A stretch of 64,000 nt of DNA, taken from NCBI GenBank assembly GCA_965226885.1, contig CBDDEL010000017.1:32001-96000 (forward strand). The letters are read 5' to 3'. Source of the stretch: Opitutales bacterium. Its GTDB lineage: Bacteria > Verrucomicrobiota > Verrucomicrobiia > Opitutales > UBA2987. Positions 11,886-36,576 of this stretch are shown here, in pieces. Under the pieces are notes generated by a model, which saw nothing but the letters and a program-made list of their open reading frames with translations, made no database searches and was not told where the DNA came from. The first letter of the stretch is position 1. The number at the start of each line of letters is the position of its first letter. The translations under genes and the position numbers were made by a program.

Positions 11886-12794
11886 TCAGGTGTTTTTCAA
11901 AATGGTAGCGATGCGCTCGGAAATGCCTTTCCATTGGCTGGCTCCGACGGTCACGGGGGCCCGTCTGCCCAGACCACGTGCCCAAACAGTTTTTAATCCG
12001 ATCTGTTTGGCATAATCCAGGTCTACCCCGCCGGGTGGAGCGGAGAGGTCCATGACGAGCGCATGCGGCGGGAGTTTATCGAGAACAGAGGGTGTTACAA
12101 TGCGTGCCGGTACGGTGGAAAAGAGGATGTCTAATTGAGGGGCCAACGATTCCAGGTCATCGGTGTGGGCTGCATCGGCTCCGGCATTGAGGGCGTCCGC
12201 TCTGGCTTCCGCTTTTCTGGCCGCCAGGGTGACGTTTGCCCCCAGCAGGACCAGAGTCCGCGTGAGCATGGCGCCGATATTGCCGTAGCCGACAACGCAG
12301 ACTTTTGACCGGTGCAGGGTCCTGTCGGTGTTTTCGATGGCCAATTGAAGGGCTCCCTCAATAATGGCGTGCATCCGCAGGAGCATCAGCTCCTTGTCCG
12401 ATTCGTATTCATGCAGCCCGATGCCGAGCGATTCAGCGGTTTGTTTGAGCGCTTCGTCGGGGGTCCCCAAAATTATATGGGCGCCGGTGTCCATGACACT
12501 TAAAAGATCGCCATCCAGCAGAATCGATTCGGTGGCGAAAAGAGAACCATCCACACTCATACCGGGAATCGGGAAAAGGGCAAAATGGGCTCCTTTGAGG
12601 GCATCCCGGGCGCTGTCCGATTTTTCCACCCCTTCGATTCCGCCGTCCGGCCAGGGAAATCCGAAAGCCAGCACCTTTGCCCCGGCAGCAGCGGCCAGGC
12701 GGGCAATTTCGCGCTCCCTCTCATCTCCGCCCACTACGGCGATCCGCAGGCGACTCCAATCGACGGAATCCTGGATTTTACTACCTTTTATCAT
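11886..12794 (-). CDS. Dipicolinate synthase subunit A (DpaA/SpoVFA)-like NAD(P)-binding protein
   Basis: IAVVGGDERE start, EGALQLAIENTDRTLH, GYGNIG, DLSAPPGGVD, ARGL; no DpaB partner in the window. Confidence 0.8.
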   Translation of the reverse strand: MIKGSKIQDSVDWSRLRIAVVGGDEREREIARLAAAAGAKVLAFGFPWPDGGIEGVEKSDSARDALKGAHFALFPIPGMSVDGSLFATESILLDGDLLSVMDTGAHIILGTPDEALKQTAESLGIGLHEYESDKELMLLRMHAIIEGALQLAIENTDRTLHRSKVCVVGYGNIGAMLTRTLVLLGANVTLAARKAEARADALNAGADAAHTDDLESLAPQLDILFSTVPARIVTPSVLDKLPPHALVMDLSAPPGGVDLDYAKQIGLKTVWARGLGRRAPVTVGASQWKGISERIATILKNT

Positions 12795-13880
12795 TTAACC
12801 CCTGATTTTTTCCAACAAGCCCTCTTTGTCGAGCCCCGCTATGCCCATTTTTTGGGCGTTCCTTCCCGTCGATTGGAAATCCTTTCCGGTCAGTATTTCG
12901 CCCAGTTTCAGGAGGGATTCGGCAGCGGGAGTTTTCACTCCGGCGATTTGCGCCAGGGCCAGGAACGGGACCAGGCCGTGCCCGAAATCCTCCCTATAAT
13001 AGCGATGTCCGAGCGAATCGGGCGCTTTGATTTTGCGGTTGGCTTTGCCCCCGGTGATGGCCCGGACCAGATCGCCTCCCTCCGAATGCGACTTTTCCAC
13101 CGTTCCGAGGGCCGTCATTTCATCGATTAATTGGGGTAAATTATGCCCGAAAGCATTTGCCGTGGCCAGCCTCTCGTCATCGAGGTTTTTCATGACACGG
13201 GCCACACCGGGGGTCATTCCCTCGACATAAAAAGTGAAATCGCCGCCGGTGGCCTCGATCCAGGCCGATCCCAGCACGGCGCAGGGCGGATGCAGGACCA
13301 GATTTACATTGGCCAGGCCGGTGGCCAGGATGTCCCCTACAATGTTGGCCGCCGGGTAAAGCTCTGCGCCCCAGCGAAGCGCTTCCCCGCCCCCCGGGAG
13401 GGCAGCCAGCCGAATGCTTTTGGCCGCGCTGGTGATGATCACCCGGTTCTCCCGGTATTTTCTGGCCACATAGGTGAGGGTGGAAAATTCAGCCAGGGGG
13501 GGCGGACGCATTCCGCGTTCCCTGAAAACATTCTCGAACTCCAGCGCGCCGCCTGTGTGTCCGGGATTGAGGACAATCGGCGTGGAGGTGAATCCGGCAT
13601 CGGCAATGGCGTGGGCCATCGCCGAATGGGCAAAGGTCGGCAGGCAAACCAGAAAAACTTCGGCTCCTTGCAGAACGGCCGGCAAATCGGTGGAAATGAG
13701 TTCGGGTTTGGCCAAGCCTTCTCCCAGGATGCCCTCGTACTCGACCCCGCCGGTTTCCCGCAAGGCATCAAGGGGGCACTGCGAACGGTTCCAGAGGCGT
13801 ACCTCACGGCCGCGGGAAATCTGTTCGGCCACCGCCGAAAGGCCGCCCGCCCCGGCGCCCAATATGGCTACGGCGCTCAT
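12795..13880 (-). CDS. NAD/NADP opine (octopine/nopaline) dehydrogenase family protein
   Basis: ILGAGAGG, LNPGHTGG, NVNLVLHP, FTFYVEG, RYYREDFGHGL; start 13880 overlaps the upstream stop (ATGA). Confidence 0.88.
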   Translation of the reverse strand: MSAVAILGAGAGGLSAVAEQISRGREVRLWNRSQCPLDALRETGGVEYEGILGEGLAKPELISTDLPAVLQGAEVFLVCLPTFAHSAMAHAIADAGFTSTPIVLNPGHTGGALEFENVFRERGMRPPPLAEFSTLTYVARKYRENRVIITSAAKSIRLAALPGGGEALRWGAELYPAANIVGDILATGLANVNLVLHPPCAVLGSAWIEATGGDFTFYVEGMTPGVARVMKNLDDERLATANAFGHNLPQLIDEMTALGTVEKSHSEGGDLVRAITGGKANRKIKAPDSLGHRYYREDFGHGLVPFLALAQIAGVKTPAAESLLKLGEILTGKDFQSTGRNAQKMGIAGLDKEGLLEKIRG

Positions 13881-15034
13881 TTTTCGGCGTATTTTTCCAG
13901 CTTGGCAAGGTCCACCTCGACGCCCAGCCCTGGGCCGTCTGGGGCCATGACTTGGCCGTCCTGGAACCTGAATGGCTCCGTCACAATATCGTCCAAGTAG
14001 TAAATACCGGCGATATCCGGCCCTGGCGCGCCCTCCGGTTTGGTAACCGGGCATACGCTGGGCAGGATGGCATTTTTGAGGGCCGTTCCCAGGTGGAGGT
14101 TGGCCGCGTTGCCAATTCCCAATTCGATGGAGCCTCCGATATCGCAATAAATCCCCAGGGTGTCGGCGAAATCGGCCTGCTGTTTGGCCCGGTAAAGGCC
14201 GCCCGGCTTGGTCACGTAGCAGGAAAAACAGGCGGCGGCTTCATTTTCATGCAATTCCAGAATATCCCCGACCGTCCAGGCCGACTCGTCGGCCATGACC
14301 GGGGTGTCGATGCGCGCGGCCACCTTGGCCAGACCCTCGATACCCGCCACCGGCTGTTCGCACAGAAAGATGCCATATTCCTCCTGTCGGCGGGTCACCT
14401 CGACGGCCTCCTGAATGGTGGCGTAGCCCTCGTTGCCATCAACCCGGATGCGTACCTCGTCTCCCAGTTTTTCCCTTAATTTTTGGACCAATTCCACATC
14501 TCTGGCGGGATCGAGGCCGGTTTTGCATTTGAGGGTGCGTGCCCCTTCGGCCACGGCTTGTTCCGCTTCGGTCACGCAGCGGTCGTTGTCCATGATGCCG
14601 AGGGAGTGGGCGATTTCGATACCATCGCGGTGGCGGCCCCCAAGGAGAGTGGAAACGGGCACTCCAAAGGCCTTTCCGGCGATATCGTAACAGGCCATGT
14701 CGATGGCCGCCTTGGCATAGGGATGGCCTTTGGCCGCCCGGTCCATTTGGGCATGCAGGACACCCATCTGCCTGGGATCCATACCTTTGATGGCGGGAAG
14801 CAGGTGATCCATGATGAGGTGTTTGACCGTTTCCGGGGATTCGCCGTAATAACGCATGGCGGCCCCGCCCCAAGTCATTCCGGCGGGCGCTTCGCCCCAG
14901 CCGCTGAGGCCCTCGTCGGTGTCGACCCGTACGATGGCATGCCGCCCTATGGGAGCGACCATTTTACTGGCCCAGGTGTGGTGGCGGCGGTTGGGGATGG
15001 CCACAATTGTTACGGTGCAATCGACGATTTTCAT
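13877..15034 (-). CDS. Enolase superfamily enzyme (muconate cycloisomerase / mandelate racemase-like)
   Basis: GWGEA, AAIDMACYD, KxK (LKCKTG), metal ligands DGNE / EQP / DES, PDGPGLGVEVD. Confidence 0.92.
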   Translation of the reverse strand: MKIVDCTVTIVAIPNRRHHTWASKMVAPIGRHAIVRVDTDEGLSGWGEAPAGMTWGGAAMRYYGESPETVKHLIMDHLLPAIKGMDPRQMGVLHAQMDRAAKGHPYAKAAIDMACYDIAGKAFGVPVSTLLGGRHRDGIEIAHSLGIMDNDRCVTEAEQAVAEGARTLKCKTGLDPARDVELVQKLREKLGDEVRIRVDGNEGYATIQEAVEVTRRQEEYGIFLCEQPVAGIEGLAKVAARIDTPVMADESAWTVGDILELHENEAAACFSCYVTKPGGLYRAKQQADFADTLGIYCDIGGSIELGIGNAANLHLGTALKNAILPSVCPVTKPEGAPGPDIAGIYYLDDIVTEPFRFQDGQVMAPDGPGLGVEVDLAKLEKYAEK

Positions 15035-15179
15035 AGTACCTCACTGATCGAAAATCGTTTTTATCTCAATTAAAATCTGATTGCCAGCAGAGGAGGCGTA
15101 AAAACATAATCATCGCCCATACCCTTGCCAGGAATCCGGCAAAGGTTGTTTTCAGCGAAAAAGGAGTGAATTAAATAAA

Positions 15180-15425
15180 ATGCCAGTAGTAACTGTTCAA
15201 ATGTGGCCGGGCCGGACAACCGAGCAAAAACGGGCCCTCGTCAAAGCCATCACCGATGCCATGGTCGAACACGCCAATGCCAGACCGGATGCCTTGCATG
15301 TGGTCTTACAGGAAGTGCCCCTGGAAAACTGGGGACGGGCCGGTGTGCTCGGCGTCGATCGAGTGGATTTGAAAAAGGATAAAAAGGAGGGAGAGGTAGA
15401 AGGGCAGGGCGTCGATGAGTCTTGA
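15180..15425 (+). CDS. 4-oxalocrotonate tautomerase family protein
   Basis: Catalytic N-terminal Pro (MPVVTV), GRTTEQK, WGRAG; upstream aaggag RBS. Confidence 0.92.
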   Translation: MPVVTVQMWPGRTTEQKRALVKAITDAMVEHANARPDALHVVLQEVPLENWGRAGVLGVDRVDLKKDKKEGEVEGQGVDES

Positions 15426-16404
15426 TTTACTCGATCCGGGTAAAACCGCGCTCATTGTCATCGACATGCAGAATGCCTTTGCCCACGAAAAGGGGACTCT
15501 GGGCATTTCCGGGGTAAACATCGAGCCGGCCCGTGAGGCCGTCGAACCGATTTCCCGATTGGTCAAAGGCTGCCAAAAAGCGGGTGTGCCGGTTCTGTGG
15601 ACCTTACAGGAACATTTTCCCGCTGAAAAGGACCACCGGCGCGGAAAAAAAAGGCTTCCCTCGCACACTTCGAAGCGCAAAACGGTTTCCGCCCTGGCCA
15701 GAAGCTGGGACGCCCAACTACTGGACGAACTGGCTCCGTTGGCAGACGATCCTTCGCTCATCATTCGCAAACACCGCTTCGGTGGATTTTATGAAACGCG
15801 TTTGCAAATCGTCCTCGAAATGCTGGGGGTGGAGGCGCTTTTAGTGACCGGAGCCACTGCCAATGCCTGCGTCGAGACGACGCTGCGCGAGGCCTATTTG
15901 CGCGATTACGATGTGGTCGCGGTGACCGATTGCATCGCCGGGGTATCAGCCGAATGGGAAAAACCGGCCCAGGAAGTCTGGGCGCATTATTTGGGTATAT
16001 TGGCCGATTCCTCAGCCGTTCTGGAATGGATTGAAAACGCGGGCGGCGCGCGCAACTTGGGTCTGGCCCATCTATTGTTGAAAGTGAGCAACCTCGAAAG
16101 ATCGCGACGGTTTTATGTCGAAATGCTCGGCTTTAAGGTGCGTCCCGATGCCTCGCCGCTGCCCGACGGGCGTCCCCTCGTGGTGATGGAGCAGGGTCTA
16201 GGCCTTACCATTGGCGGCGATGGCCAGGGCCAGGTGGATCATATCGCCTTTGAAGTGCGTGGGGTGGCGGAGTTTGCCCAACGCGTTAAAGAGGCCGGAG
16301 TTCCCATCTTCCGCGATCTTGGCCCCGGCGCCTACGGCTTGACCATTTACGTAAAAGATCCCGATGGCAACATCATCGAAATTTTTGAGAAAAATCCTCG
16401 TTAA
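15415..16404 (+). CDS. Isochorismatase-family cysteine hydrolase fused to a C-terminal VOC/glyoxalase domain
   Basis: D-K-C triad (VIDMQN, IRKHRF, ANACVETT); VOC part AHLLLKV...DHIAFEV...DPDGNIIE. Confidence 0.88.
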   Translation: MSLDLLDPGKTALIVIDMQNAFAHEKGTLGISGVNIEPAREAVEPISRLVKGCQKAGVPVLWTLQEHFPAEKDHRRGKKRLPSHTSKRKTVSALARSWDAQLLDELAPLADDPSLIIRKHRFGGFYETRLQIVLEMLGVEALLVTGATANACVETTLREAYLRDYDVVAVTDCIAGVSAEWEKPAQEVWAHYLGILADSSAVLEWIENAGGARNLGLAHLLLKVSNLERSRRFYVEMLGFKVRPDASPLPDGRPLVVMEQGLGLTIGGDGQGQVDHIAFEVRGVAEFAQRVKEAGVPIFRDLGPGAYGLTIYVKDPDGNIIEIFEKNPR

Positions 16405-16421
16405 AACGGGATTTTAGGGTG

Positions 16422-17258
16422 TCAGATTGAGGGTGGGGGAAACGGAAAAACCGTTTTTATTCCGGCCAGGGTTTCCTCGGTTGTGTGGTCGCCGGGAACG
16501 CATTCAAACCCGACTGGTCCGTCCCAGCCGAGGGCCTGCATTTCCCGCCAGATGGCGTGGATGTCGATTTCACCCGAACCGGGCATGCCACGCCCTGGAA
16601 CATTGGCGATGTGAATGGCTCCCGCCTTGTCGATGGTGCGCCGCAGGTTTTTGATGATGTTCCCTTCGTTGATCTGCTGGTGGTAGAGATCGAAAACGAA
16701 TTTCAGGCGCGGATAATCGATGCGTTTGACCAGTTCGTAGGTATCGACGGCGCTGCGCAAGAGGTAGCCCTGGACGTCGTCCTGGGAAAGAGGCTCGATG
16801 AGCAGATCGACATCGACCCCGGAGTTGGCGGCCAGTTTGGTCACTTTTTTGACGCCTTGGTCGAGGTTTGCCCAACGTTCTTCATCGGTTAACGGGCGGG
16901 AATGGGGAACCACGATTCCCCCGTGGCCCACCTCGTCGGTCTGCAAAAAGAGGGCTTTGACACCCGTTCGCGCGGCCATATCGAGGGACTCCTTGAATTG
17001 TTCGAGGACCTTTTCGTGGTCTGCGGCGTCGCAGAGGGAACCTTTGCGTGAACCGAAAACCGAATTGACGAAAATTCCGTTGTCCTGGGCCACCTGGGCC
17101 AGATGGTTGATATCCTTGTCGATCCAGTCCCAGAAATCGACACCGTTGAAACCGGCCTGGGCGGCGGCGGGGATGCGTTCCTCGACGGGCAGTTCATTCC
17201 AGAGGAACTGGTATTGGGGCATCCCGGCGATAGATTCGACCATGGCGATGTATTCCAT
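16422..17258 (-). CDS. Hydroxypyruvate isomerase-like TIM-barrel isomerase/epimerase
   Basis: LLIEPL, FDLYHQQINEGN, HIANVPGR, GFE. Confidence 0.82.
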   Translation of the reverse strand: MEYIAMVESIAGMPQYQFLWNELPVEERIPAAAQAGFNGVDFWDWIDKDINHLAQVAQDNGIFVNSVFGSRKGSLCDAADHEKVLEQFKESLDMAARTGVKALFLQTDEVGHGGIVVPHSRPLTDEERWANLDQGVKKVTKLAANSGVDVDLLIEPLSQDDVQGYLLRSAVDTYELVKRIDYPRLKFVFDLYHQQINEGNIIKNLRRTIDKAGAIHIANVPGRGMPGSGEIDIHAIWREMQALGWDGPVGFECVPGDHTTEETLAGIKTVFPFPPPSI

Positions 17259-17404
17259 TTTCAAATTCCGACCTAATTAAAATTATGGGTTAGGTTTATG
17301 TTTGCGGGAAACGTTTACTGTAATGGGAGGCGCCAGAGGTTGGAAATATGCCAGCACTATTTTTGTCTAGTCAATGACTTTAATCCGGTGCAAAATCTTA
17401 TCGA

Positions 17405-18754
17405 ATGAAAGCCGATCTTGTAATCCGTAATGCCAGGGTGGTGGACCACAAAGGCGAGTTTTTTAGTGGTATCGCCGTGTTGGGAGAAAAAATCCTTTTG
17501 ACCGGCACAAACGATGCCCTTCCCGAGGGGCGAAGGGAGATCGATGCCGAGGGGCGTTGCCTGATGCCGGGCGTGATCGACCCGCACTGTCATCTGGGGG
17601 TCAATTACCCTTATGATGAGGACATGCGCTCCGAAAGCGCCCAGGCGGCCCGCGGGGGGTTGACCACTTTTTTCCTCTATATCCGTAATAAGGAGCCTTC
17701 CTATATTCCATTTTATCATGACCGGCGGTCGGTGGGGGAGGCGAACTCCTGCCTCGATTTTGGTTTTCATTTCGGTATTCAGCGGGAGGAACATATCCAT
17801 GAAATCCCACGTATCGCGGAGGAAACGGGGGTGCAGTCTTTTAAACTTTATTTTGGCTACGAGGCGGACAATCCCATCGGTATCGTGCCCGCCACGGATG
17901 GCTGGGTTTATGGGGCCATGCAGAGGGCGGCCAAGCTGCCTCGGGGCAAGGTATCCGTGCATTGCGAAAACACGGCCATCGCCACCTGGTTGAAAAAAGA
18001 GCTGATGGCCACGGGACGCCAGGACCTGGGGGCTTTTACGGAATCGCGCCCGGCATTTTGCGAGGAGGAAACCATTGGGCGCATGATTTTTCTGGCGGAG
18101 TTGACCGGCTGCCCTCTTTATATTGTCCACACGACGATTGGCGTAGGTCCCATTATGGGAGCCGAGGCGCGGGCCCGGGGCGTCGATGTGACGATCGAGA
18201 CCTGCCCGCACTATCTTACGCGGACGGCTTATGATGAGGACCTCGATATGCGGGCCAAGATTTCCCCGCCTTTGCGCGATGAGAAGGAAAAGGAAATGCT
18301 TTGGGAGGGGGTTTTGAATGGTTCGGTGCGCAGTCTCGGTAGCGACCATGTGCCGTTTTTCCCAAAAAAAGGAGAGGATTTGTGGACGGAAAAACCGGGT
18401 ATCGTCTCCTTTCCCTGGGAACTGCCGCTGATGCTTTCGGAGGGCGTTCACCGGCGGGGTTTGCCGCTGTCCCGGCTGGCCTACCTCAATTCCGCTGGGC
18501 CGGCCCAGCATTTCGGTTTTTACCCGCAAAAAGGCTCCCTCCTGGCCGGAACCGACGCCGACCTCGTTCTGGTTGATTTGGACGAGGAGCGGGAAGTCGT
18601 CCACACCGGCAACGGAACCTGTATCTACGAAGGAATGAACCTCAAAGGCTGGCCCGTCCTGACCGTCTCAAGGGGCCGCATCATTTACGAAAACGGTGAA
18701 GTGGATGAAGATGCCTACGGCCACGGATTGTGCGTCAACGTCCCCGAAAAGTAA
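17405..18754 (+). CDS. Cyclic amidohydrolase (dihydroorotase/dihydropyrimidinase/allantoinase-like)
   Basis: Complete binuclear site: DPHCH, SFKLY, VHCEN, IVH, GSDH; ETCPHYL, SPPLR. Confidence 0.9.
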   Translation: MKADLVIRNARVVDHKGEFFSGIAVLGEKILLTGTNDALPEGRREIDAEGRCLMPGVIDPHCHLGVNYPYDEDMRSESAQAARGGLTTFFLYIRNKEPSYIPFYHDRRSVGEANSCLDFGFHFGIQREEHIHEIPRIAEETGVQSFKLYFGYEADNPIGIVPATDGWVYGAMQRAAKLPRGKVSVHCENTAIATWLKKELMATGRQDLGAFTESRPAFCEEETIGRMIFLAELTGCPLYIVHTTIGVGPIMGAEARARGVDVTIETCPHYLTRTAYDEDLDMRAKISPPLRDEKEKEMLWEGVLNGSVRSLGSDHVPFFPKKGEDLWTEKPGIVSFPWELPLMLSEGVHRRGLPLSRLAYLNSAGPAQHFGFYPQKGSLLAGTDADLVLVDLDEEREVVHTGNGTCIYEGMNLKGWPVLTVSRGRIIYENGEVDEDAYGHGLCVNVPEK

Positions 18755-18972
18755 TGATTTTCCCCGTCCTCAACATCTTCCTCTTCGCCTTCCTCTCCCT
18801 CATCCTCCCGACTTAATTTGAGACTCTGATAATGGCAAAATTCGTTCTTACGAAACCGATGACACCGGAAGATATAATCAAAGATTAGTGCTACAATGTC
18901 GAGTTCACTCGCGCAGCTTGTCCGCGCGATTCTCGGAAAGCAGTATTGGACACAACACTCAGGCTACTGTAT

Positions 18973-23084: not shown

Positions 23085-23115
23085 GGGGGGGGTTGGATGC
23101 TGGATTCTGGATGCT

Positions 23116-24234
23116 TTAAGAAATGGGTAGCAGCTGGTCGGTGTTGGCGTAGTTTGACAGGAGTTCGGAACCGGTTTCCGTGACGAGAACCATATCTTTG
23201 TTTTGGAGGCCGAAGCCGTGGCCGGTTTTATAGACGAGGGGCTCGATGCCCAGGACCATGCCCGCTTCGAGCGGGGTGTCGGCATATTTGCCCAGATAGG
23301 GCTCCTCGTGAAGGTGCAAACCGATGCCGTGCCCAACGAAAGATATCGGCGGGAGGTTAAGGGCGGAAAGTTTGGCGATAAAGTCCTCGTAAATGGCGCG
23401 GGTGCTTTGGCCCGGTTTGATCATTTCCAGGATGCGGTATTTGCACTCCACCAAATGTGCCCAGATGCGTTCGGCGTGTTGGGGCGGTTGGCCGACAACG
23501 GCGGTTCGGCAGACACCCGCATGGTAACCGCCGATGATGGAGAAAATTTCCACCCGGCAGATGTCGCCATTTTTTAGAATGCGTTGGGTCGGGCCCACGT
23601 TGGGAAAAACGCTGCGCTCCCCCGTGGCCACGATCATGAGCTTGAAATGCTCCGCTCCGGCGGTGTAAACCCCCCGGGTGAGAGCTGAGGCGATGTCCAT
23701 CTCCGTGCTACCCACGCCGACCGCCCGGTAGGCATCGGTAATGGATTGATCGGATATGCGAGAGAGGCGGCGCAGAAGATCGATTTCCTGGGGCGTTTTT
23801 ATTTGCCGGAGCCGGTTGTAGAGGCTCTCGGCGGGGGCGAATTTCGCATTGGGCAAGAGTTTGCTGAGTCGCGCAAAATCTCCCGCTGGGAGGTAATCCA
23901 TTTCGACGCCGAGGCGGCCCTTGGCCAGGCCGAGGTCGTTGAGGAGGGCGGCCAGTGTTTCCATGGGATCATCCGTAAATTCCCCCCATACGCGAATTTC
24001 AGCACCTTTTGCGGCCCGGTTTCGGACGGTGCTTTCCTCCATATCGACGACCACAAGGGCGGATTGTCCGTCAGCCTTAACGATGGCCAGGGCGTGCCGC
24101 CAGCGCAGGATGGGCTGGGAGGGAATCGTGAACCCGGTCGTGTAAGCGAAATTTTCCGGAGAAATGGCGATCAAGGCGTCAAAGCCCGCCTCGGTCATGG
24201 CCTTCATCTGACGCTGGACGATTAATTGATTCAT
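23116..24234 (-). CDS. M24 family (Xaa-Pro peptidase / creatinase / ectoine hydrolase-like) hydrolase
   Basis: ENFAYTTGF, RQIKTPQEI, GHGIGLHLHEEP, IEP; metal ligands partly substituted. Confidence 0.88.
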   Translation of the reverse strand: MNQLIVQRQMKAMTEAGFDALIAISPENFAYTTGFTIPSQPILRWRHALAIVKADGQSALVVVDMEESTVRNRAAKGAEIRVWGEFTDDPMETLAALLNDLGLAKGRLGVEMDYLPAGDFARLSKLLPNAKFAPAESLYNRLRQIKTPQEIDLLRRLSRISDQSITDAYRAVGVGSTEMDIASALTRGVYTAGAEHFKLMIVATGERSVFPNVGPTQRILKNGDICRVEIFSIIGGYHAGVCRTAVVGQPPQHAERIWAHLVECKYRILEMIKPGQSTRAIYEDFIAKLSALNLPPISFVGHGIGLHLHEEPYLGKYADTPLEAGMVLGIEPLVYKTGHGFGLQNKDMVLVTETGSELLSNYANTDQLLPIS

Positions 24235-24379
24235 AGTGGGTTCCCTTCCAGCCAAGGAAATTTTCGACTGTCTGACCAGAGTTAATTTTTTGTTTGTCTA
24301 GGATTGTCCCATCAGGTAACTACGACCCTCCCTTAGGCAAAACTCGAATAGTTAAACAGAAATTAATTTAATTCAAAAT

Positions 24380-25156
24380 ATGAGCATTGAAGGAAGAGTC
24401 GCCTTAGTAACCGGGGGAGGGCAGGGCATCGGGCGTGGAATTGCCGAGCGCCTGGCCAAAGACGGGGCCACCGTCGCCATTGCCGATTTGAACGGGGAAA
24501 CGGCCGCCGAGGCTGCTTCCGATATTGTAGCCAGCGGAGGCAAGGCGCTTGCCGTGGTTATGGATGTGGCCAAAGAATCGAGTGTCAACGAAGCAGTGGA
24601 AAAAGTTGTGGCCGAGGTTGGGCCGGTTTCGATTTTGGTCAACAATGCGGGGATTTTTCGCGACACCCCGGCCCTGGAGGTCTCTTTGGATGAGTGGAAT
24701 TTCAATCTCGCGGTTATGCTGACGGGGCCCCTGCTTTGCGCCAGAGCAGTCGGGCCAGGCATGATTGAGCAGCGTTGGGGGCGCATCATTAACATGGCTT
24801 CGCTGATGAGTTTCGTAGCTTATGGGCGCGATGTAGGTTATTGCACGACGAAGACGGGACTGCTGGGCTTGACCCGTTCCCTGGCGGCCGAACTGGCCAA
24901 ACACAATGTGCTGGTCAACGCCATTTGCCCCGGAAATATCATGACGCCCATGCTGGAGGAAACGGGGCGGCTGGTTGAACTGCGCGATGGCATGGAGCCG
25001 GGTCAGTTTATCCGGGAGCGGTCCAACGACATACCGTTGGGGCGGCTGGGGCAGCCCGAGGACATCGCCAAAATGGCCTCTTATCTTTGCAGTGAAGATG
25101 CCGACTACGTCACCGGCCAGTCCCTGCACTTAAACGGCGGTCTATATAACACCTGA
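24380..25156 (+). CDS. Short-chain dehydrogenase/reductase
   Basis: TGGGQGIG, NNAG, YCTTK, VNAICPG. Confidence 0.93.
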   Translation: MSIEGRVALVTGGGQGIGRGIAERLAKDGATVAIADLNGETAAEAASDIVASGGKALAVVMDVAKESSVNEAVEKVVAEVGPVSILVNNAGIFRDTPALEVSLDEWNFNLAVMLTGPLLCARAVGPGMIEQRWGRIINMASLMSFVAYGRDVGYCTTKTGLLGLTRSLAAELAKHNVLVNAICPGNIMTPMLEETGRLVELRDGMEPGQFIRERSNDIPLGRLGQPEDIAKMASYLCSEDADYVTGQSLHLNGGLYNT

Positions 25157-25246
25157 TTTATTTATTTTTGTTTTTTTCTAATAAATCAGAAACATGAACG
25201 TATATACAGTAGATCATCGCTCTTATATGCTAAAAATTTTTTAATT

Positions 25247-26281
25247 ATGCCAAAAAACAATCTCCAAAAATATAATCCCGATTTTCTGGTCCGGCTTTAC
25301 CGTGAAATGGTTCTTATCCGGCGTTTCGAGGAACGTGCCTCGGAGCTTCGCAATGCCGGGCATATTCCTGGTTTCCTGCATCCTTATATCGGACAGGAGG
25401 CGGTCGCGGTGGGGATTTGCGCGGTCCTGGGCGAAAATGATTTCATTGCCAGCACCCATCGCGGGCATGGGCATATTTTGGCGCAGGGCGGCGAGCCGAA
25501 ATACATGTATGCCGAACTTTATGCCCGGCAGGACGGTTATAACAGGGCCAAGGGGGGGTCTCTGCACCTCGCCAATATCGGGCTTGGTATCATCGGGGCC
25601 AACGGCATCGTGGGCGGTGGCCTACCGCTGGCGGTGGGCGCGGCCCTGGCCATCAAGCGGGCCAACGAGGCCGATTACCCCGGTTCGGAAAAATGCAAGG
25701 GAGGTGTCTCTGTGGTGTTTTTCGGTGACGGCGCCTCCAACGAGGGCTCTTTTCACGAATCCCTCAATCTGGCCGCTCTGTGGAAATTGCCGGTAATTTT
25801 TGTTTGCGAAAACAACCTTTACGGGGAGTTTACTTCGCAGGAAAAACATCAGACGATCAAAGATATTGCCTCGCGATCTTCCTCTTACAACATGCCGGGC
25901 CTCATCGCCGACGGCAATGATGTGCTCGATACTTTCCACGTCATGACGACAGCGGTTGACAATGCCCGAAAAGGGAAGGGGCCCACCTTGCTGGAGTGCA
26001 AGACCTACCGGCACCGAGGTCATTACGAGGGTGATATGGGCCGTTACCGGCCCGAGGAGGAAGTGGCATTCTGGATGGCCAAAGATCCCATTAACAATTT
26101 CGGCAAACGTCTCCTGGAGGAATCCGTAGCGACGGAAGAGAAGTTGAAAGAATTGGAAAGCGAAATCGGCAAACAACTGGATGAAGCGGCGGAATTTGCC
26201 GGCAACTCACCTCATCCCGATGCTGAGGAAGCGCTCGACCATGTATTTGTGGAAAGCTATAACGGGAGGGCCTTGTTATGA
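25247..26281 (+). CDS. ThDP-dependent 2-oxoacid/acetoin dehydrogenase E1 alpha
   Basis: GQEA, THRGHGH, GDGASNEG...N ThDP motif, TYRHRGH. Confidence 0.92.
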   Translation: MPKNNLQKYNPDFLVRLYREMVLIRRFEERASELRNAGHIPGFLHPYIGQEAVAVGICAVLGENDFIASTHRGHGHILAQGGEPKYMYAELYARQDGYNRAKGGSLHLANIGLGIIGANGIVGGGLPLAVGAALAIKRANEADYPGSEKCKGGVSVVFFGDGASNEGSFHESLNLAALWKLPVIFVCENNLYGEFTSQEKHQTIKDIASRSSSYNMPGLIADGNDVLDTFHVMTTAVDNARKGKGPTLLECKTYRHRGHYEGDMGRYRPEEEVAFWMAKDPINNFGKRLLEESVATEEKLKELESEIGKQLDEAAEFAGNSPHPDAEEALDHVFVESYNGRALL

Positions 26282-27270
26282 GCAAAACAAAGACCCGTAG
26301 AATCAGTTATTCGCAGGCCATCAACGAGGCGTTGAGTGAGGAAATGGAGCGCGACCCTTCGATCCTGATGCTGGGGGAGGATGTCGCTGAACCCGGAGGC
26401 GTTTTCGGCGTGACGAAAGGGCTTTACAAGAAGTTTGGGACTTCGCGAGTGCTCGACACGCCCATTTCCGAAGAGGCCATGGTCGGCGCGGCACTGGGCG
26501 CTTCGCTTCTGGGTGTTCCTACCATCACGGAAATCATGTTCAGCGACTTCGTCACACTGGCCATGGACCAGTTGGTCAACCAAGCGGCTAAATTTCATTA
26601 CATGACGGGCGGGCGCACCAGCGTACCCATGTTGATCCGCATGGTTACAGGCACCGCTGGGGCCGCTGCGGCCCAACATTCCCAAAGCCTGGAAGCCTGG
26701 TTTACCCATACACCGGGTCTCAAGGTGGTCACAGCTTCCACTCCTTATGAGGCCAAAGGTTTGCTCAAAAGCTCCATCCGCGACCCCGATCCGGTCCTGT
26801 TTTTTGAGCACAAGCTGCTCTACAATAGCAAGGGCAAAGTCCCGGAAGAGGAATACACCTTGCCGCTGGGAGAGGGAGCCGTCATGCGTGAGGGATGCGA
26901 TGTCACCGTTGTGACCTACCTCAACATGCTACCCAAAGTCCTCCAGGCAGCCAAAAAGCTCGACCGTGAAGGGATTTCGGTGGAGGTCTGGAATCCGCGC
27001 AGCCTGGTGCCGTTTGACCGCGAGGGCCTGGGGCGGGCGATATGCAAAACCGGCCGTCTCCTGATTGTCCATGAAGCGCCCCAGCGCAGTGGATTCGGGG
27101 CGGAAATCGCAGCCATCGCGGCGGAGGAATATTTCCAGCACCTGAAGGCGCCGGTTTGCCGGTTGGGCGGAGCCAACACCCCCATGCCCTATGCTCCGGA
27201 AATGGAAAACCGGGTCGTTCCCCAGGTGGAAGACATTATGGAGGCGGTGCGCAAAATTTTTAATAACTAA
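26278..27270 (+). CDS. ThDP-dependent dehydrogenase E1 beta
   Basis: LGEDV, DTPISE, QHSQSLE, FFEHKLLY; ATGA overlap with E1 alpha. Confidence 0.92.
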   Translation: MSKTKTRRISYSQAINEALSEEMERDPSILMLGEDVAEPGGVFGVTKGLYKKFGTSRVLDTPISEEAMVGAALGASLLGVPTITEIMFSDFVTLAMDQLVNQAAKFHYMTGGRTSVPMLIRMVTGTAGAAAAQHSQSLEAWFTHTPGLKVVTASTPYEAKGLLKSSIRDPDPVLFFEHKLLYNSKGKVPEEEYTLPLGEGAVMREGCDVTVVTYLNMLPKVLQAAKKLDREGISVEVWNPRSLVPFDREGLGRAICKTGRLLIVHEAPQRSGFGAEIAAIAAEEYFQHLKAPVCRLGGANTPMPYAPEMENRVVPQVEDIMEAVRKIFNN

Positions 27271-27299
27271 ATTTAAAAAACCGGGAGATTGATTCTATT

Positions 27300-27578
27300 A
27301 TGGCGGAGACGGTAAAATTACCCAAATGGGGCCTTACCATGGAGGAGGCCACCATTGTCGAATGGCTGGTGGAGGAGGATGAAAGTGTTGAAAAAGGGGA
27401 GATAATTGCCGAAGTGGAAGCCGAGAAAGCCAATATCGAGCTGCCCTCGCCCTGTTCCGGCGTGGTGGCTAAAATCCTGGTCGAGGACGGAGAGGTGGCC
27501 GCTGTCGGCGATCCCCTCATGATCATCGCCTCTTCCGCGGAGGAGGCCAGTGCCATTCGGGAAAAAGAGGATTCCTGA
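27300..27578 (+). CDS. Stand-alone lipoyl domain protein
   Basis: LPKWGLTMEEATIVEW...EVEAEKANIELPSP; 92 aa, no acyltransferase core. Confidence 0.88.
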   Translation: MAETVKLPKWGLTMEEATIVEWLVEEDESVEKGEIIAEVEAEKANIELPSPCSGVVAKILVEDGEVAAVGDPLMIIASSAEEASAIREKEDS

Positions 27579-27614
27579 GCGGAAAAAAAATGGGCCCAGG
27601 GCTTTTATTTTGTT

Positions 27615-29046
27615 ATGAAAATTTACCAAATTCCCGTCTGTGGGGGGAGTGAACGGGTCGTCACCGAGAGCTATTTTGATATAACGAATCCCGCCAATGG
27701 CGAGATCGTCTCCCGCATCCCGAAAATGACGGCCACCGATGTGGACCGGGCCGTTTCCGCCGCCACCGGGGCCATGGACGAAACCGATTGGGCCCATGAT
27801 GGCGTCCTGCGGGCCAAAGTCATGCTGCAATGGGCCGACCGGCTGGAGGGAAATATAAAGTCCATTGCCCGACAACTGACGCTGGAAAACGGAAAACTGA
27901 TCGGCGAGGCGACTTACGAAGTTAGCAGCCAGGTGGGAGTTATACGCTATAACGCCGGACTGGCCCGCACGGTGAGTGGGCGGTCCCACTCGCTCGTGCG
28001 CGATTCCTTTGCGGTGGTGGCGCGGGAACCGATAGGAGTGGTAGCCGTCATTTCGCCCTGGAACTGGCCCGTTACCCTGATGATCCGCGACCTTGCGCCG
28101 GCCCTGGCGGCCGGGAATGCCATTTTGGTCAAACCAGCCTCGCAACCGGCGGGAGTGAGCCTGGACGTTTTGCGTCTGCTAATTGAAGAGACGGATTTGC
28201 CTTCGGGCATTGTTCATGCCATTACTGGGTCCGGGCGGTCTGCCGGACAGGCTATGGTAGTGCATCCGGGGATCGACATGATCGCCTTTACGGGGGACAG
28301 CTCAACCGGCCGCAACATTATGCGGGACGCCTCGCCAACTTTGAAAAAAACGGCGCTCGAACTGGGTGGTAAATCGCCCATGGTGGTCTGTGCCGACGCT
28401 GGTGAGCGCGGTTTTCACAACCACTTCCGGGCAGATCTGCACGGCCCCGTCCCGACTGCTGGTGGAGCGCGCCATTGAGGATGAACTTTGCGGGCGGCTG
28501 AAAGAAGCGATATCAACCATCCGCGTAGGAGACGGCCTGGACCTGGCCTCCCAAATGGGCCCGCTGACCACCGGGGATCAATATAGAAAAGTTCTCAAAT
28601 TCATGGAAATGGGCCGTCAGGAATGCCGCTTGGTGGCGGGCGGGGAAACCTTGCAGGATGAAAGCTTGGCCAAAGGCAATTTTGTGGCCCCAGCCATTTT
28701 TACTGACGTGGCGGATGATTCACCCCTCAATCGGGAGGAAATATTCGGGCCCGTGCTGGTGATCAAGGCATTTGAGGGAGACGAAGAAGCCATTGCCCTG
28801 GCCAACGACACCGAATTCGGATTGGCTTCGGCCGTTTTTACGGAGAATGTGCACAGGGCCTGGCGCATCGCCCGCGCCATCAAAGCGGGAACCGTTTGGG
28901 TGAACACCTATAACCGGTTTTACCCGGAGGTCGAAGTGGGCGGCTACAAGCAGAGCGGTATCGGGCGTATGGCCGGTCTTGATGGGTTGCTCGAATTCAC
29001 CCAAACCAAGTTCATCAATTTCGACAGTATTGCGCCCCAGGGCTGA
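27615..29046 (+). pseudogene. Aldehyde dehydrogenase, frameshifted near 28391-28400
   Basis: PWNWP, FTGDS, LELGGKSP in one frame; GQIC, EEIFGP, GGYKQSG in another; the intervening DLDxA-type residues are absent. Confidence 0.88.
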
Positions 29047-29154
29047 CTTCGCCCCATGCGGGCATTGATTTTATCGTTGTCCGAACGGTTTTTGCCTGAT
29101 TGAGTAGGGGAACTGTTTTCGGCGTCAAGCGCCAGCAATGAAGATTTAGGTATC

Positions 29155-30927
29155 GTGAGTTTCGACATCGCCATTGTCTTTGCGGTTCTCCTGGTTTCAG
29201 TGGCGCTCTTTGCCACCGACAAGGTGCGGCATGATGTTATAGGTTTGATGGTCATAGTGGCTTTGGGGCTTTGCGGAATATTAAAACCCAAGGAGTTGCT
29301 GGGGGGATTCAGCAACCAGGCTGTGGTCACGATCGGGGCCATGTTTGTCTTGAGTGCAGCGCTCATGCGATCGGGCATGGTGGCGGCATTGGGAGCGAAG
29401 TTAACCAGTCTTTCGCGAGGCAGCCCGGCGCGCTTTCTCTTTTTGTCACTCTGTGCCGTGTGTATTTTGTCGGCTTTTATCAACAACACGCCAGTGGTGG
29501 TGGTTTTTATACCGGCGGTGCTGACGGTATGCACGAAAATGGGGCAGAGTCCTTCCAAATTTCTCATGCCCATATCTTTCGCCTCAATGCTGGGAGGAAG
29601 CTGCACATTGATCGGGACATCTTCCAATATTCTGGTTTCATCGCTTTCTGAAGGGGCTGGGCATGGGCCGCTGGGGATGTTCGAGTTTAGCAAAATGGGC
29701 TTACTGGTGGTTCTTGCGGGAATGGCCTATTTGCTTCTGTTCTCCCGGCGATTCTTACCGGAAAGGGTAACTCTGGCCACGAGCGCACCCATCGATGCGA
29801 CCAAAGAGTACGTAACCCAGGTAAGCGTGGGTAAGGAATCGCATTTGGTGGGCAAAATGCCCCAGGAGACCTTCCTAGGATCAAGCGGAATCTCTATTGT
29901 CGAATTGATTCGTGGGGAGAGAATCCGGCGTTTGGACAAGAAAACCTTTTTAGAGGTCGGCGACGTTTTACTGCTAAAGGGCGACGTTAATAAGATCCTG
30001 GAGCTTGACCGGCAGCACGAAATCAGCATCACCCCGGAATTGGCTCAGATGGAGGGGACCATCAAGCGTGTCGAAATGTCGCTCTTCGAATTGATGATCG
30101 CGCCGGAGTCGCGCCTCATCGGCCGCACCTGCAAGAATGCCGGGCTACGGGCCCAGTTTGGGGTTTCCGTATTTGCCCTGCAACGCAGGGGCCGCCACCA
30201 CCAGAGGGAAATTGGAGATCTGGAGTTGCGCATGGGCGACATCCTGCTGGTGCGCGGGCAGATGGAGTCCCTCAATCAGCTTCGCCATAGCGATGCTTTT
30301 ATACTTTTGGAGGGTGTGCACGAGGAAGTGGTTGAGAGGCATAAAGCGCCGTTAGCGGTGGGCATTATTCTGGCTATCGTGGCTCTGGCTGCGTTCAGTG
30401 TTTTTCCCATCAGCGTCCTGTCTCTGGCCGGTGTTGCCCTCATAATCATGACCCGGCTGCTGACACCCGGGCAGGTTTACAGGTCCATTGACTGGACGGT
30501 TCTGGTGCTCATCGCGGGCATGATCTCTCTGGGCGAAGCGATGGGGAAAACGGGGGCGCTCGATCTTTTGGCCAATATCCTCCTTTCCTGGGTGGGCGAC
30601 CTGGGAGCCCATTTCACTTTGTGGATATTTTATTTTATGACGGCTGCTCTGAGCCTGCTCATTTTGAACAAACCGGCGGCCGTCTTGATGGCTCCCCTGG
30701 GGATGATACTGGCCCAGCGCCTGGGAGTATCGCCGATGACCTTCATCATGGCAGTGGCCTTTGCCGCCTCCACCGCCATGGCCACCCCAATGGGTTACCA
30801 GACCAACCTGCTGGTTTACGGGCCGGGCGGTTATAACTATAAAGATTTCCTCAGATTCGGCCTGCCTCTTAATATTGGCATCGGCATTTTAGCTTGCCTC
30901 CTGCTGCCCGTTTTCTGGCCGTTTTAG
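29155..30927 (+). CDS. SLC13/DASS family permease with two TrkA-C domains
   Basis: SAFINNT, GGSCTLIGTSSN, TPMGYQTNLLVYGPGGY; central soluble TrkA-C repeats. Confidence 0.9.
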   Translation: MSFDIAIVFAVLLVSVALFATDKVRHDVIGLMVIVALGLCGILKPKELLGGFSNQAVVTIGAMFVLSAALMRSGMVAALGAKLTSLSRGSPARFLFLSLCAVCILSAFINNTPVVVVFIPAVLTVCTKMGQSPSKFLMPISFASMLGGSCTLIGTSSNILVSSLSEGAGHGPLGMFEFSKMGLLVVLAGMAYLLLFSRRFLPERVTLATSAPIDATKEYVTQVSVGKESHLVGKMPQETFLGSSGISIVELIRGERIRRLDKKTFLEVGDVLLLKGDVNKILELDRQHEISITPELAQMEGTIKRVEMSLFELMIAPESRLIGRTCKNAGLRAQFGVSVFALQRRGRHHQREIGDLELRMGDILLVRGQMESLNQLRHSDAFILLEGVHEEVVERHKAPLAVGIILAIVALAAFSVFPISVLSLAGVALIIMTRLLTPGQVYRSIDWTVLVLIAGMISLGEAMGKTGALDLLANILLSWVGDLGAHFTLWIFYFMTAALSLLILNKPAAVLMAPLGMILAQRLGVSPMTFIMAVAFAASTAMATPMGYQTNLLVYGPGGYNYKDFLRFGLPLNIGIGILACLLLPVFWPF

Positions 30928-36572: not shown

Positions 36573-36576
36573 TTAG

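Follow-up and report, generated by a model that had tools for sequence, protein, structure and literature searches.

The window analysed here is a stretch of 64,000 nucleotides from an Opitutales bacterium (Verrucomicrobiota; assembly GCA_965226885.1, contig CBDDEL010000017.1, positions 32,001–96,000), and positions 11886–30927 of it hold a cluster of 15 metabolic and transport genes. An earlier note, made from the sequence alone, had named the families of these genes and read them as an orphan catabolic cluster for a nitrogen-rich substrate. Families were called here by Pfam and NCBIfam scans of the open reading frames (ORFs) of the window, NCBIfam matches being judged against their curated cut-offs, and all 15 genes were found with the families and at the positions that had been proposed. 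Two entries of the gene list needed correction: the VOC domain is not a separate gene and forms the C-terminal half of the cysteine hydrolase, and the aldehyde dehydrogenase (ALDH) is present but as two ORFs, split by a 26-bp deletion relative to a congener. The cluster lies in a region rich in insertion sequences (IS), with EngA, aminotransferase and AsnC genes on its left and GlgX, GAPDH and PGK genes on its right. The source genome (G000; 5.48 Mb in 17 contigs, 96% complete) was compared with four congeners (G001–G004) and with related loci from other taxa. We regard the cluster, with high confidence, as a coherent conserved unit, and it very probably serves the breakdown rather than the synthesis of a compound.

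The genes are arranged in six transcription blocks. On the minus strand, a gene for an enolase-superfamily enzyme of the MLE subgroup (13877–15034; MR_MLE_N and MR_MLE_C) is followed by one for an NAD(P) opine dehydrogenase of the N-(1-D-carboxyethyl)-L-norvaline dehydrogenase (CENDH) type (12795–13880; Octopine_DH, PF02317, 120.9 bits) and one for a DpaA-like NAD(P) oxidoreductase (11886–12794; DpaA_N, 68.2 bits with a cut-off of 29.2). The ATG of the opine dehydrogenase gene overlaps the enolase stop codon (ATGA) and its TAA abuts the DpaA-like ATG, an arrangement that predicts translational coupling of all three genes. The second block, on the plus strand, encodes a 4-oxalocrotonate-tautomerase-family (4-OT) protein (15180–15425; Tautomerase, 74.4 bits) and an isochorismatase-type cysteine hydrolase fused to a glyoxalase-fold VOC domain (15415–16404; both domains called by Pfam). 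Two genes stand alone: one for a Hyi-like TIM barrel of the xylose-isomerase fold on the minus strand (16422–17264; AP_endonuc_2, 112.2 bits) and one on the plus strand for a binuclear cyclic amidohydrolase resembling hydantoinase, allantoinase and dihydropyrimidinase (17405–18754; assigned from NCBIfam and solved homologues). The fifth block, on the minus strand, encodes an M24 'pita-bread' hydrolase with a Creatinase_N domain (23116–24255; both domains called by Pfam), whose true start is probably the ATG at 24234, and then a 476-aa TRZ/ATZ-like amidohydrolase (21654–23084; Amidohydro_1, 172 bits). The last block, on the plus strand, comprises a short-chain dehydrogenase/reductase (SDR; 24380–25156; adh_short and adh_short_C2), the thiamine-diphosphate E1 alpha (25247–26281) and E1 beta subunits (26278–27270; the pair with E1_dh, Transket_pyr and Transketolase_C domains), a free-standing lipoyl carrier of 92 aa (27300–27578; Biotin_lipoyl, 73.9 bits), the ALDH pseudogene (27615–29046; two Aldedh halves covering profile positions 8–248 and 260–461) and a DASS/SLC13-type anion permease with two TrkA_C domains (29155–30927; CitMHS, 300.7 bits, with TrkA_C and Na_sulph_symp also called).

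No equivalog NCBIfam model reaches its cut-off for any protein of the cluster; the only models passed are at subfamily level, two generic ones for SDR and one for E1 beta. Models of other pathways remain below their cut-offs (DoeA, 89.5 with a cut-off of 613; RutB, 98.4 with 378; AllB, 247 with 358). Given that every equivalog model concerned stays below its cut-off, the proposal that the gene set does not fit characterised pathways is upheld for those of ectoine, Rut, pyrimidine, allantoin and muconate. At the RNA level, no Rfam family, riboswitches included, was found at the gathering score in the window or in 11 related loci, the sole match being a tRNA in locus L023. A search for an operator shared by the three divergent promoters returned only short AT-rich words and one 9-mer. 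This 9-mer, TTTGTCTAG, is common to two of the three divergent promoter regions, 17265–17404 and 24235–24379.

The DpaA-like protein falls short of both DpsA/DpaA equivalogs (NF006162, 210.8 with a cut-off of 261; TIGR02853, 192.3 with 319.65), and its best PDB match is 2rir, a dipicolinate synthase A chain (131 bits). DpaB (TIGR02852) had no match in the source genome at its 96% completeness, whereas the control, Bacillus subtilis, gave a match above the cut-off. The opine dehydrogenase combines a Rossmann domain bearing an N-terminal GxGxxG with the Octopine_DH helical domain and is similar over its full length to PDB 1bg6 (E 2.7e-52, residues 4–357), which places it in the opine dehydrogenase family. 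Its residues H197, R293 and D298, which may correspond to the His, Arg and Asp of the opine dehydrogenase active site, are invariant in 21 sequences. For the enolase-family enzyme, the muconate cycloisomerase subfamily model scores best (232.5 with a cut-off of 334.95), and no equivalog is reached. The residue set of the MLE subgroup is complete, with K169-x-K171, D199, E226, D249 and K276 invariant in 36 sequences. Solved dipeptide epimerases match this enzyme at E values of about 1e-39 to 1e-41, and muconate cycloisomerases are closer.

The tautomerase begins with Met-Pro, has an R12 that is invariant in 63 sequences and scores 67.8 on the 4-OT model (cut-off 80). The nearest solved relatives of the cysteine hydrolase domain are RutB (82.9 bits), biuret and cysteine hydrolases and N-carbamoylsarcosine amidase (44 bits), all of which act on ureido or carbamoyl groups. 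Across 45 sequences, its Asp-Lys-Cys triad (D17, K119 and C152) is invariant, as are H219, H276 and E322 in the VOC half. The Hyi-like protein scores 120.1 on the hydroxypyruvate isomerase model (cut-off 353). With the cyclic amidohydrolase, the NCBIfam models for allantoinase (277 with a cut-off of 631), D-hydantoinase (256 with 393), ErtD (177 with 600) and dihydroorotase (174 with 452) all stay below their cut-offs, and solved L- and D-hydantoinases match it at 192–198 bits. Its distance to hydantoinases, to allantoinase and to dihydropyrimidinase is about the same. H61-x-H63, K147, H186, H242 and D314 are invariant in 67 sequences and, by their motif, are presumably the metal-site residues, K147 being the carboxylated Lys.

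The families of the four C–N hydrolases listed in the earlier note were recovered, but the reactions of two of them are uncertain given their altered active-site positions. The TRZ-like enzyme reaches no NCBIfam model (best 273 with a cut-off of 522), and its ligand set (H70, H72, H237, H274 and D328) is invariant in 46 sequences. In alignments, its T240 takes the place of the HxxE Glu of 3hpa ('HLAE') and 4v1x ('HMAE'), and the alignment with 4f0r pairs this position with Ser (S241); among the 46 orthologues, the position is Thr in 42, Ser in four and Glu in none. The M24 enzyme is nearest to solved prolidases (126 bits), followed by DoeA (66) and creatinase (62). Where four solved prolidases share two conserved Asp, it has E236 and G247, while H309, E317 and E338 are kept, and all five residue states recur in 45 of 45 orthologues. 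We take these Asp, Asp, His, Glu and Glu positions to be metal ligands. Creatinase is a non-metallo member of the M24 fold that has lost such ligands; if this parallel holds, the M24 enzyme may be an amidino- or amide-hydrolase rather than a peptidase.

In the last block, the SDR passes generic SDR subfamily models only, E1 beta passes the subfamily model NF006667 (352.2 with a cut-off of 321) and E1 alpha reaches 352.1 with a cut-off of 393.85. The best NCBIfam model for the lipoyl carrier is the lipoyl end of the acetoin dehydrogenase E2, and the carrier has the residues E-K-A around K43. Neither the E2 catalytic family (2-oxoacid_dh) nor E3 families were found among the ORFs of the cluster, nor in L089, a related Gaiellales locus.

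Related loci were collected with an alignment of DpaA-like proteins as the seed for a scan of one genome per prokaryote species. The scan gave 259 pattern matches, 142 of which were confirmed, and the best 80 of these 142 loci were analysed, four from the congeners and 76 from other genomes. The window proteins were compared with the 80 loci by tblastn (E ≤ 1e-8, at least 50% of the query). Many of the loci are short contigs (2.7–20.9 kb) cut by contig ends, and all co-occurrence counts are therefore lower bounds. The opine dehydrogenase was found in 74 loci, the cyclic amidohydrolase in 68, the tautomerase in 65, the enolase-family gene in 64, the hydrolase/VOC fusion in 58, M24 in 51 and the TRZ-like gene in 47. 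Counts were lower for SDR (18), the two ALDH halves (15 and 19), the Hyi-like gene (11), E1 beta and the lipoyl carrier (seven each) and E1 alpha (six), and the DASS permease was found in none. The carriers belong to Pseudomonadota, Actinomycetota, Acidobacteriota and Verrucomicrobiota (phyla and lineages as given in record titles), whose titles include soil, groundwater and uncultured marine lineages, and gene order is mostly fixed. Cultured carriers include Variovorax ureilyticus (L065), Afifella pfennigii (L097), Shinella sp. HZN7 on plasmid pShin-03 (L110), Aminobacter aminovorans and Actinomadura yumaensis (L061). The opine dehydrogenase gene is directly followed by the DpaA-like gene in 62 of 74 loci, the DpaA-like gene by the amidohydrolase gene in 67 of 68, and the tautomerase gene immediately precedes that of the hydrolase/VOC fusion in the mapped loci. 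Beyond these loci, the DpaA-like protein has 1683 database relatives at E ≤ 1e-10 among 8000 candidates scored.

The Gaiellales locus L089 carries nearly the complete set, with both of its halves, on one strand, in the order ALDH, SDR, Hyi-like, SDR, E1 alpha, E1 beta, lipoyl carrier, tautomerase, hydrolase/VOC, M24, enolase, opine dehydrogenase, DpaA-like and amidohydrolase. Since both are in this one operon, the E1/lipoyl/ALDH/SDR/Hyi half belongs with the hydrolase half. Similarly, a 93-aa homologue follows E1 beta in L089, and the free lipoyl carrier is thus a conserved feature and not a truncation. The conserved core consists of three blocks (enolase, opine dehydrogenase, DpaA-like and amidohydrolase; tautomerase then hydrolase/VOC; M24 then TRZ-like), extended here and in some Actinomycetota by the SDR, the Hyi-like protein, E1 alpha and beta with the free lipoyl carrier, and ALDH; in the window, the DASS permease serves the cluster. 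The idea of an orphan but coherent cluster therefore stands: the genes co-occur elsewhere, the core genes in 47–74 of the 80 loci, and no equivalog cut-off marks them as close orthologues of a characterised pathway.

Companion genes were counted after clustering all ORFs of the 76 non-congener loci and naming the clusters by Pfam and NCBIfam. A CobW-type GTPase is linked in 40 of these loci, GntR/FCD regulators fall into two clusters (35 and eight loci) and RidA occurs in 16. A NitT/TauT-type ABC importer is represented by its permease and ATPase in 37 loci and by its binding protein in 26; the binding protein is nearest to the solved formylaminopyrimidine-binding protein and THI5 (60–73 bits). 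One locus, L048, carries a TAXI-TRAP system. A cytosine-deaminase-like amidohydrolase, far below the cut-offs of its models, was found by tblastn in 38 of the 80 loci. Oxidative companions include cytochrome P450 (nine of 76), a three-subunit molybdenum hydroxylase (eight of 76) and also an FAD oxidase. No oxygenase family was seen in the window, as the earlier note had it, but its confidence in an oxygen-independent route is not warranted, given that relatives often carry a P450, a molybdenum hydroxylase or an FAD oxidase.

A further companion, from proteobacterial clusters, is a conserved protein of about 227 aa lacking a Pfam family, which is present in 46 of the 80 loci (for example, L083 12179–12904, L110 18240–18923 and L030 3689–4480). 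It is in no Opitutales locus, in none of six Actinomycetota loci with E1/lipoyl, and it has no match in the source genome. The best Foldseek matches of its AlphaFold model (pLDDT 82) are PhyH-type Fe/2OG oxygenases (TM 0.42–0.48, E about 4e-4), a structural likeness too weak to name the protein. Neither this protein nor GntR, CobW, P450 or the binding protein has a tblastn match (E ≤ 1e-3) in the gap between the amidohydrolase and TRZ-like genes of the window or in the gaps of G004.

Two neighbours of the cluster have a narrower distribution. The AsnC/Lrp-type regulator of the left flank (9514–9996, minus strand; Pfam AsnC_trans_reg) adjoins the DpaA-like gene in three of the four congener loci (L018–L020, not L021) and in none of the other 76. 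It is a candidate local regulator whose link to the cluster is confined to the genus. The DASS permease is next to ALDH in G001, G002 and G004 and was found in none of the 76 loci outside the genus.

The DpaA-like gene has a strong match in all four congeners (79–88% identity). It is absent from the 36 other genomes of the order, two of which gave weak Rossmann-domain matches only, and no homologue at E ≤ 1e-30 was found in 300 other sampled genomes of the phylum (148 other genera). In a quick maximum-likelihood tree of the DpaA-like protein and the amidohydrolase from 67 loci and the window, the Opitutales pair forms its own deep and well-supported branch, placed between a clade of gamma- and alphaproteobacterial metagenome-assembled genomes and one of Actinomycetota with Alpha- and Betaproteobacteria; the tree does not reveal the donor. 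The cluster seems to have entered the genus laterally, acquisition by the ancestor of the genus being the simplest reading. G004 has the same genes in the same order beside the same EngA, aminotransferase and AsnC genes. All the genes are also present in G001 and G002, in G001 at two places, and from G003 only the left-hand genes and E1 beta were recovered, on short contigs. The dN/dS of every cluster gene, ALDH halves included, is 0.06–0.20 against G004 and 0.02–0.11 against G001; the flanking aminotransferase gives 0.09 and 0.07, respectively. These ratios point to purifying selection on the cluster genes since acquisition. Two matches in G004 (locus L012), M24 (3551–4688) and DASS (11510–13290), are each split over two frames, which may reflect frameshifts or assembly errors.

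IS expansion across the source genome is extreme, with 155 blastn matches of at least 300 nt for the IS3-family element, 193 for ISNCY and 391 for an IS1380-like element. Two direct IS3 copies, 21 kb apart, bracket the cluster: copy 1, of 1328 bp, lies between AsnC and the cluster (10315–11642, minus strand; rve/HTH_21 transposase), and copy 2 (31212–32561, minus strand), whose transposase is split, is 98.3% identical to it with 21 gap positions. With 155 IS3 matches in the genome, flanking copies are expected by chance, and at this IS density the pair is unremarkable. Copy 1 is missing at the matching site in G004, whose left border is without IS3, and G001 is also without these IS copies. 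The description of the setting as IS-rich is correct, but the framing as an IS-borne island is not, because the cluster, to judge from its context and the empty site in G004, is older than the IS copies. A composite transposon between the IS3 copies was ruled out, since G004 and G001 carry the cluster without bounding IS and the genome holds about 150 copies. To the right of the cluster are three IS1380-like copies placed nearly head to tail (32744–34319, about 34999–36576 and about 36571–38147), 99.6–100% identical and with the transposase split into two ORFs in two of the three.

An ISNCY/IS5-like element of 1836 bp (19750–21585, plus strand; transpos_ISNCY_1 on two ORFs) is inserted within the cluster. 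It has perfect 15-nt terminal inverted repeats and a frameshifted transposase split over two frames, and short repeated letters at its flanks resemble a target duplication of about 6–7 nt. The insertion interrupts no conserved gene and lies where the amidohydrolase and TRZ-like genes converge at their 3' ends. Beside it is a 258-aa ORF (18973–19749, minus strand) outside the conserved cluster, for which we found no Pfam or NCBIfam family, no tblastn match in the 80 loci, no other copy in the source genome and none in the congener gaps; it could be cargo, a remnant or no gene at all. In G004, the gap between the amidohydrolase and TRZ-like genes holds DDE-transposase remnants and an anthrone-oxygenase-like ORF.

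In the ALDH gene, 26 bp behind 28389 are absent relative to G004, which splits the frame; the halves are in one frame in G001, G002 and G004. The gap falls between the ELGGKSP stretch, which presumably holds the catalytic Glu, and the stretch of the catalytic Cys. Both lesions were checked with Logan contigs from four of 17 public runs, none of the 17 being listed as RNA, aligned to positions 11800–31000, from which no frequencies are derivable. In run X6, one contig has the undeleted allele, with 26 additional letters behind 28389, which contigs of X1 and X3 lack. Run X1, in which every word sampled from the query stretch is present (share 1.00), could be the sample from which the genome came, and it covers the ALDH site with no difference from the window. 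In run X4, one low-depth contig joins 19749 to 21586, an ISNCY-free site. Because an intact ALDH allele and an IS-free site exist in public runs, the ALDH deletion and the ISNCY insertion are real, recent strain-level polymorphisms. The depth of ISNCY in the public-run contigs is about 50–200 times that of the flanking genes. The cluster was thus kept through the divergence of the genus, and its erosion has just begun in the IS-flooded source genome with the ALDH deletion and the ISNCY insertion.

Our preferred explanation, held tentatively, is that the locus functions as a single catabolic unit and represents, in Opitutales, a cluster that is widespread but uncharacterised. Its substrate could not be named from sequence in the earlier note, which still holds; the best guess is a carboxylated cyclic ureide or amidine, and we give that substrate class an even chance. 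A catabolic signature is provided by the GntR/FCD regulators, NitT/TauT-type importer, RidA and CobW GTPase of the relatives. The DASS permease here, the TAXI-TRAP system of L048 and the GntR/FCD regulators point to a carboxylated substrate, while the RutB-like hydrolase, the hydantoinase-like amidohydrolase, the cytosine-deaminase-like gene and the binding protein resembling pyrimidine binders suggest ureide chemistry. The linkage of the DpaA-like and amidohydrolase genes suggests a redox step on the ring that is coupled to hydrolysis. Such redox/hydrolysis pairs are known from dihydropyrimidine dehydrogenase with dihydropyrimidinase and from orotate reductase with dihydro-orotase. The pairing of the tautomerase with the hydrolase/VOC fusion suggests loss of a carbamoyl or ureido group together with the handling of an enol or enamine, that of M24 with the TRZ-like enzyme suggests cleavage of two more C–N bonds, and that of the enolase-family enzyme with the opine dehydrogenase suggests an epimerisation before oxidative cleavage of a secondary-amine dicarboxylate.

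One order of steps can be drawn from family chemistry, though it is rather doubtful that it is right in its particulars. An anionic, carboxylate-bearing cyclic ureide or amidine (hydantoin-, imidazolone- or pyrimidine-like) would be taken up, the DpaA-like enzyme would carry out an NAD(P)-linked redox step on the ring and the adjacent binuclear amidohydrolase would open it. The hydrolase resembling RutB and carbamoylsarcosine amidase would then strip a carbamoyl or ureido group, with the tautomerase and VOC domain handling an enol, enamine or imine, and the M24 and TRZ-like enzymes may cleave further amidine or amide bonds. After epimerisation of a stereocentre by the enolase-family enzyme, the opine dehydrogenase would split a secondary-amine dicarboxylate to give an amino acid plus a 2-oxo acid, and the SDR, E1/lipoyl proteins and ALDH would cleave and oxidise a 2-oxo-acid or acyloin fragment. 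The combination of SDR, E1, lipoyl carrier and ALDH resembles the logic of acetoin and 2-oxo-acid cleavage.

Several points weigh against a functional ureide pathway of this kind. A deaminase role of the TRZ-like enzyme is doubtful, to judge from the alignment, because Thr or Ser replaces the HxxE Glu, which we take to be catalytic in TRZ/ATZ deaminases, and in the M24 enzyme both Asp positions are replaced. The pairing of an opine dehydrogenase and a DpaA homologue in ureide degradation fits no route that we know of, and the likeness of the binding protein to pyrimidine binders is weak, given its 60–73 bits. Accessory genes vary by lineage (P450, molybdenum hydroxylase, FAD oxidase, the PhyH-like protein and E1/lipoyl), so entry and exit steps, and perhaps substrates, may differ. 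Finally, the ALDH is dead in the source genome, so that the pathway may be incomplete here.

The last point leads to the reading that the cluster is a decaying relic in the source genome and no longer supports growth on its substrate. The ALDH pseudogene, the ISNCY copy within the cluster, the hundreds of IS copies in the genome and the split M24 and DASS matches of G004 agree with it, but the other 14 genes are full-length open frames with low dN/dS, the IS sits between convergent 3' ends outside the conserved genes, both lesions are polymorphic and hence recent, and other aldehyde dehydrogenases may substitute; we consider decay unlikely. We give a similarly small chance to a novel pyrimidine route, analogous to Rut and Pyd and working by hydrolysis and reduction. 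In this scheme, cytosine-type deaminases would feed a uracil- or orotate-like ring, the DpaA-like enzyme would reduce the C=C beside the ring N, and ring opening and RutB-like deureidation would follow; the tautomerase and RidA would turn an aminoacrylate-type enamine into a semialdehyde for the SDR or ALDH. Members of the tautomerase superfamily do act on 3-substituted acrylates and malonate semialdehyde. Among solved proteins, RutB is nearest to the hydrolase domain, the DpaA–amidohydrolase order in 67 of 68 loci mirrors the dehydrogenase/hydrolase logic, and the cytosine-deaminase-like gene (38 of 80), RidA (16 of 76) and the ThiY/THI5-like binding protein would also find a place. However, a pyrimidine route leaves the opine dehydrogenase, the enolase-family enzyme and M24 without a role, the RutB, dihydropyrimidinase and cytosine-deaminase models are far below their cut-offs, the window and 11 loci have no purine or pyrimidine riboswitch, and the transporter of the window is an anion symporter and not a nucleobase permease.

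It is improbable that the cluster degrades cyclic dipeptides or small peptide-like compounds, with the amidohydrolase opening a diketopiperazine, the enolase-family enzyme epimerising the dipeptide and M24 as the dipeptidase. The prolidases nearest to M24 (126 bits) and the match to solved dipeptide epimerases (E about 1e-39 to 1e-41) are in its favour, as are P450s of related loci whose second-best model is a cyclodipeptide-synthase-associated P450 (156–165 bits with a cut-off of 500). Yet M24 is without both Asp conserved in solved prolidases, muconate cycloisomerases are nearer than dipeptide epimerases to the enolase-family enzyme, the relatives of the hydrolase domain act on ureido and carbamoyl groups, and the TRZ-like, cytosine-deaminase-like, DpaA-like and opine dehydrogenase genes would be left without a role. 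Still less probable is that the cluster serves biosynthesis, such as that of a metal chelator of the opine type or of a compound resembling dipicolinate. The opine dehydrogenases of metallophore pathways and DpaA are biosynthetic in known systems, and 40 of the 76 loci have a linked CobW-type metallochaperone GTPase; nevertheless, four or five hydrolases, ALDH and RidA, the import-type ABC systems with binding proteins and the GntR/FCD regulators of relatives speak for degradation, the cluster ORFs yielded no call for a synthetase, a nicotianamine-synthase-like enzyme or an exporter, and DpaB was not found in the source genome. The chance that IS merely gathered a mosaic of genes lacking a common pathway, as a composite transposon, is very slight. 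Two direct IS3 copies do bracket the region and another IS lies inside it, but bracketing copies are expected at 155 matches per genome, G004 has the same genes, order and neighbours without the left IS3, and gene set and order are conserved in loci assigned by title to four phyla.

Compared with known systems, the overall logic of the catabolic unit that we favour is nearest to creatinine-deaminase/creatinase routes and to pyrimidine reduction, and its sequences and gene content match neither. The creatinine/creatine route runs through creatinine deaminase, N-methylhydantoin amidohydrolase, N-carbamoylsarcosine amidase and creatinase. The cluster presents matching enzyme families in the same logical order: an amidohydrolase-superfamily deiminase (TRZ-like here and cytosine-deaminase-like in 38 of 80 related loci), a hydantoinase-type ring opener, an isochorismatase-family amidase and an M24 enzyme with Creatinase_N, and both routes would end in a secondary amine that is then oxidised. 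However, no model of that route is reached (creatinase, 62 bits; N-carbamoylsarcosine amidase, 44 bits), the ring opener of the cluster is an ATP-independent binuclear amidohydrolase, and the route has no counterpart for the enolase-family, tautomerase, VOC, DpaA-like, opine dehydrogenase and E1/lipoyl proteins. In addition, the epimerase of the cluster implies a chiral substrate, whereas creatinine is achiral. With Pyd and Rut, the cluster shares a dehydrogenase beside a dihydropyrimidinase-like hydrolase and a RutB-like ureido hydrolase, and loci of its relatives add RutC-like RidA and the cytosine-deaminase-like gene. It differs in lacking a PreT/PreA-type dehydrogenase, the RutA monooxygenase and a beta-ureidopropionase, in its scores on RutB (98 with a cut-off of 378) and dihydropyrimidinase (256 with 393), and in its extra opine dehydrogenase, enolase-family and M24 genes.

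Single enzymes have closer counterparts. Like the DpaA of endospore formers, the DpaA-like protein has DpaA_N and a Rossmann domain over its full length and matches solved DpaA chains at 131 and 119 bits, but it is below both DpaA cut-offs, the genome has no DpaB, the host belongs to Verrucomicrobiota and the gene is coupled to the amidohydrolase (67 of 68 loci) and not to DpaB. To our knowledge, the DpaA family has so far been known only from the synthesis of spore dipicolinate. The opine dehydrogenase is similar over its full length (E 2.7e-52) to the NAD-dependent CENDH of Arthrobacter (1bg6). Classical Agrobacterium opine catabolism relies on FAD-dependent oxidases encoded on Ti plasmids. 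The last block resembles acetoin dehydrogenase and pyruvate dehydrogenase complexes (AcoABCL and PDH) in the type of its E1 alpha and beta, in a lipoyl carrier nearest to the acetoin dehydrogenase E2 and in the acetoin-reductase-like SDR and ALDH alongside; in contrast to these complexes, the lipoyl carrier is free-standing (92–93 aa) and the cluster encodes neither an E2 catalytic domain nor E3, here as in L089.

The cluster is built from known superfamilies. What is unusual about it is that its DpaA homologue has no DpaB partner, its lipoyl carrier is free and the active sites of two of its hydrolases are altered. More tentatively still than for the unit as a whole, we propose that it may be an undescribed, widely distributed degradation pathway for a common but overlooked nitrogen-containing metabolite, probably a carboxylated cyclic ureide or guanidine, which would include a DpaB-free DpaA ring redox enzyme coupled to an amidohydrolase, an NAD opine dehydrogenase acting on an imino-diacid, an E1 with a free lipoyl carrier and two new hydrolase activities, those of a TRZ-like enzyme devoid of the HxxE Glu and of an M24 enzyme devoid of both Asp ligands. 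Finding the substrate would provide a function for at least eight enzyme subfamilies at once. It would also reveal the first physiological role of a DpaA homologue outside sporulation and the first of an NAD-dependent opine dehydrogenase encoded in a catabolic operon on a bacterial chromosome. The cluster is a well-defined target for enzyme-function discovery. For the organism, it would represent a nutrient pathway that was acquired laterally, persisted as the genus diverged and is now hit by IS expansion.

Full-text searches of the literature turned up no paper on the cluster; the opine dehydrogenase described in PMC5315480 belongs to an unrelated nickel-adaptation island. Plasmid-borne versions of the cluster were found in Aminobacter, Shinella and Phyllobacterium (14 records), in which PGAP labels the genes in generic terms only. 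On the conjugative plasmid pAA03 of A. aminovorans (L111, 5155–26817), a partial cluster lies between two identical TniQ/TniB/Mu-transposase gene sets and adjoins genes for malate synthase G and D-amino-acid dehydrogenase, an arrangement from which the cluster may be mobile and glyoxylate may be one of its products. In gammaproteobacterial loci, a 530-aa protein with no Pfam or NCBIfam family is encoded beside CobW (for example, L030 2100–3692, minus strand), and it has three paralogues with 43–62% identity in the source genome, on contigs C8, C13 and C14, all outside the window.

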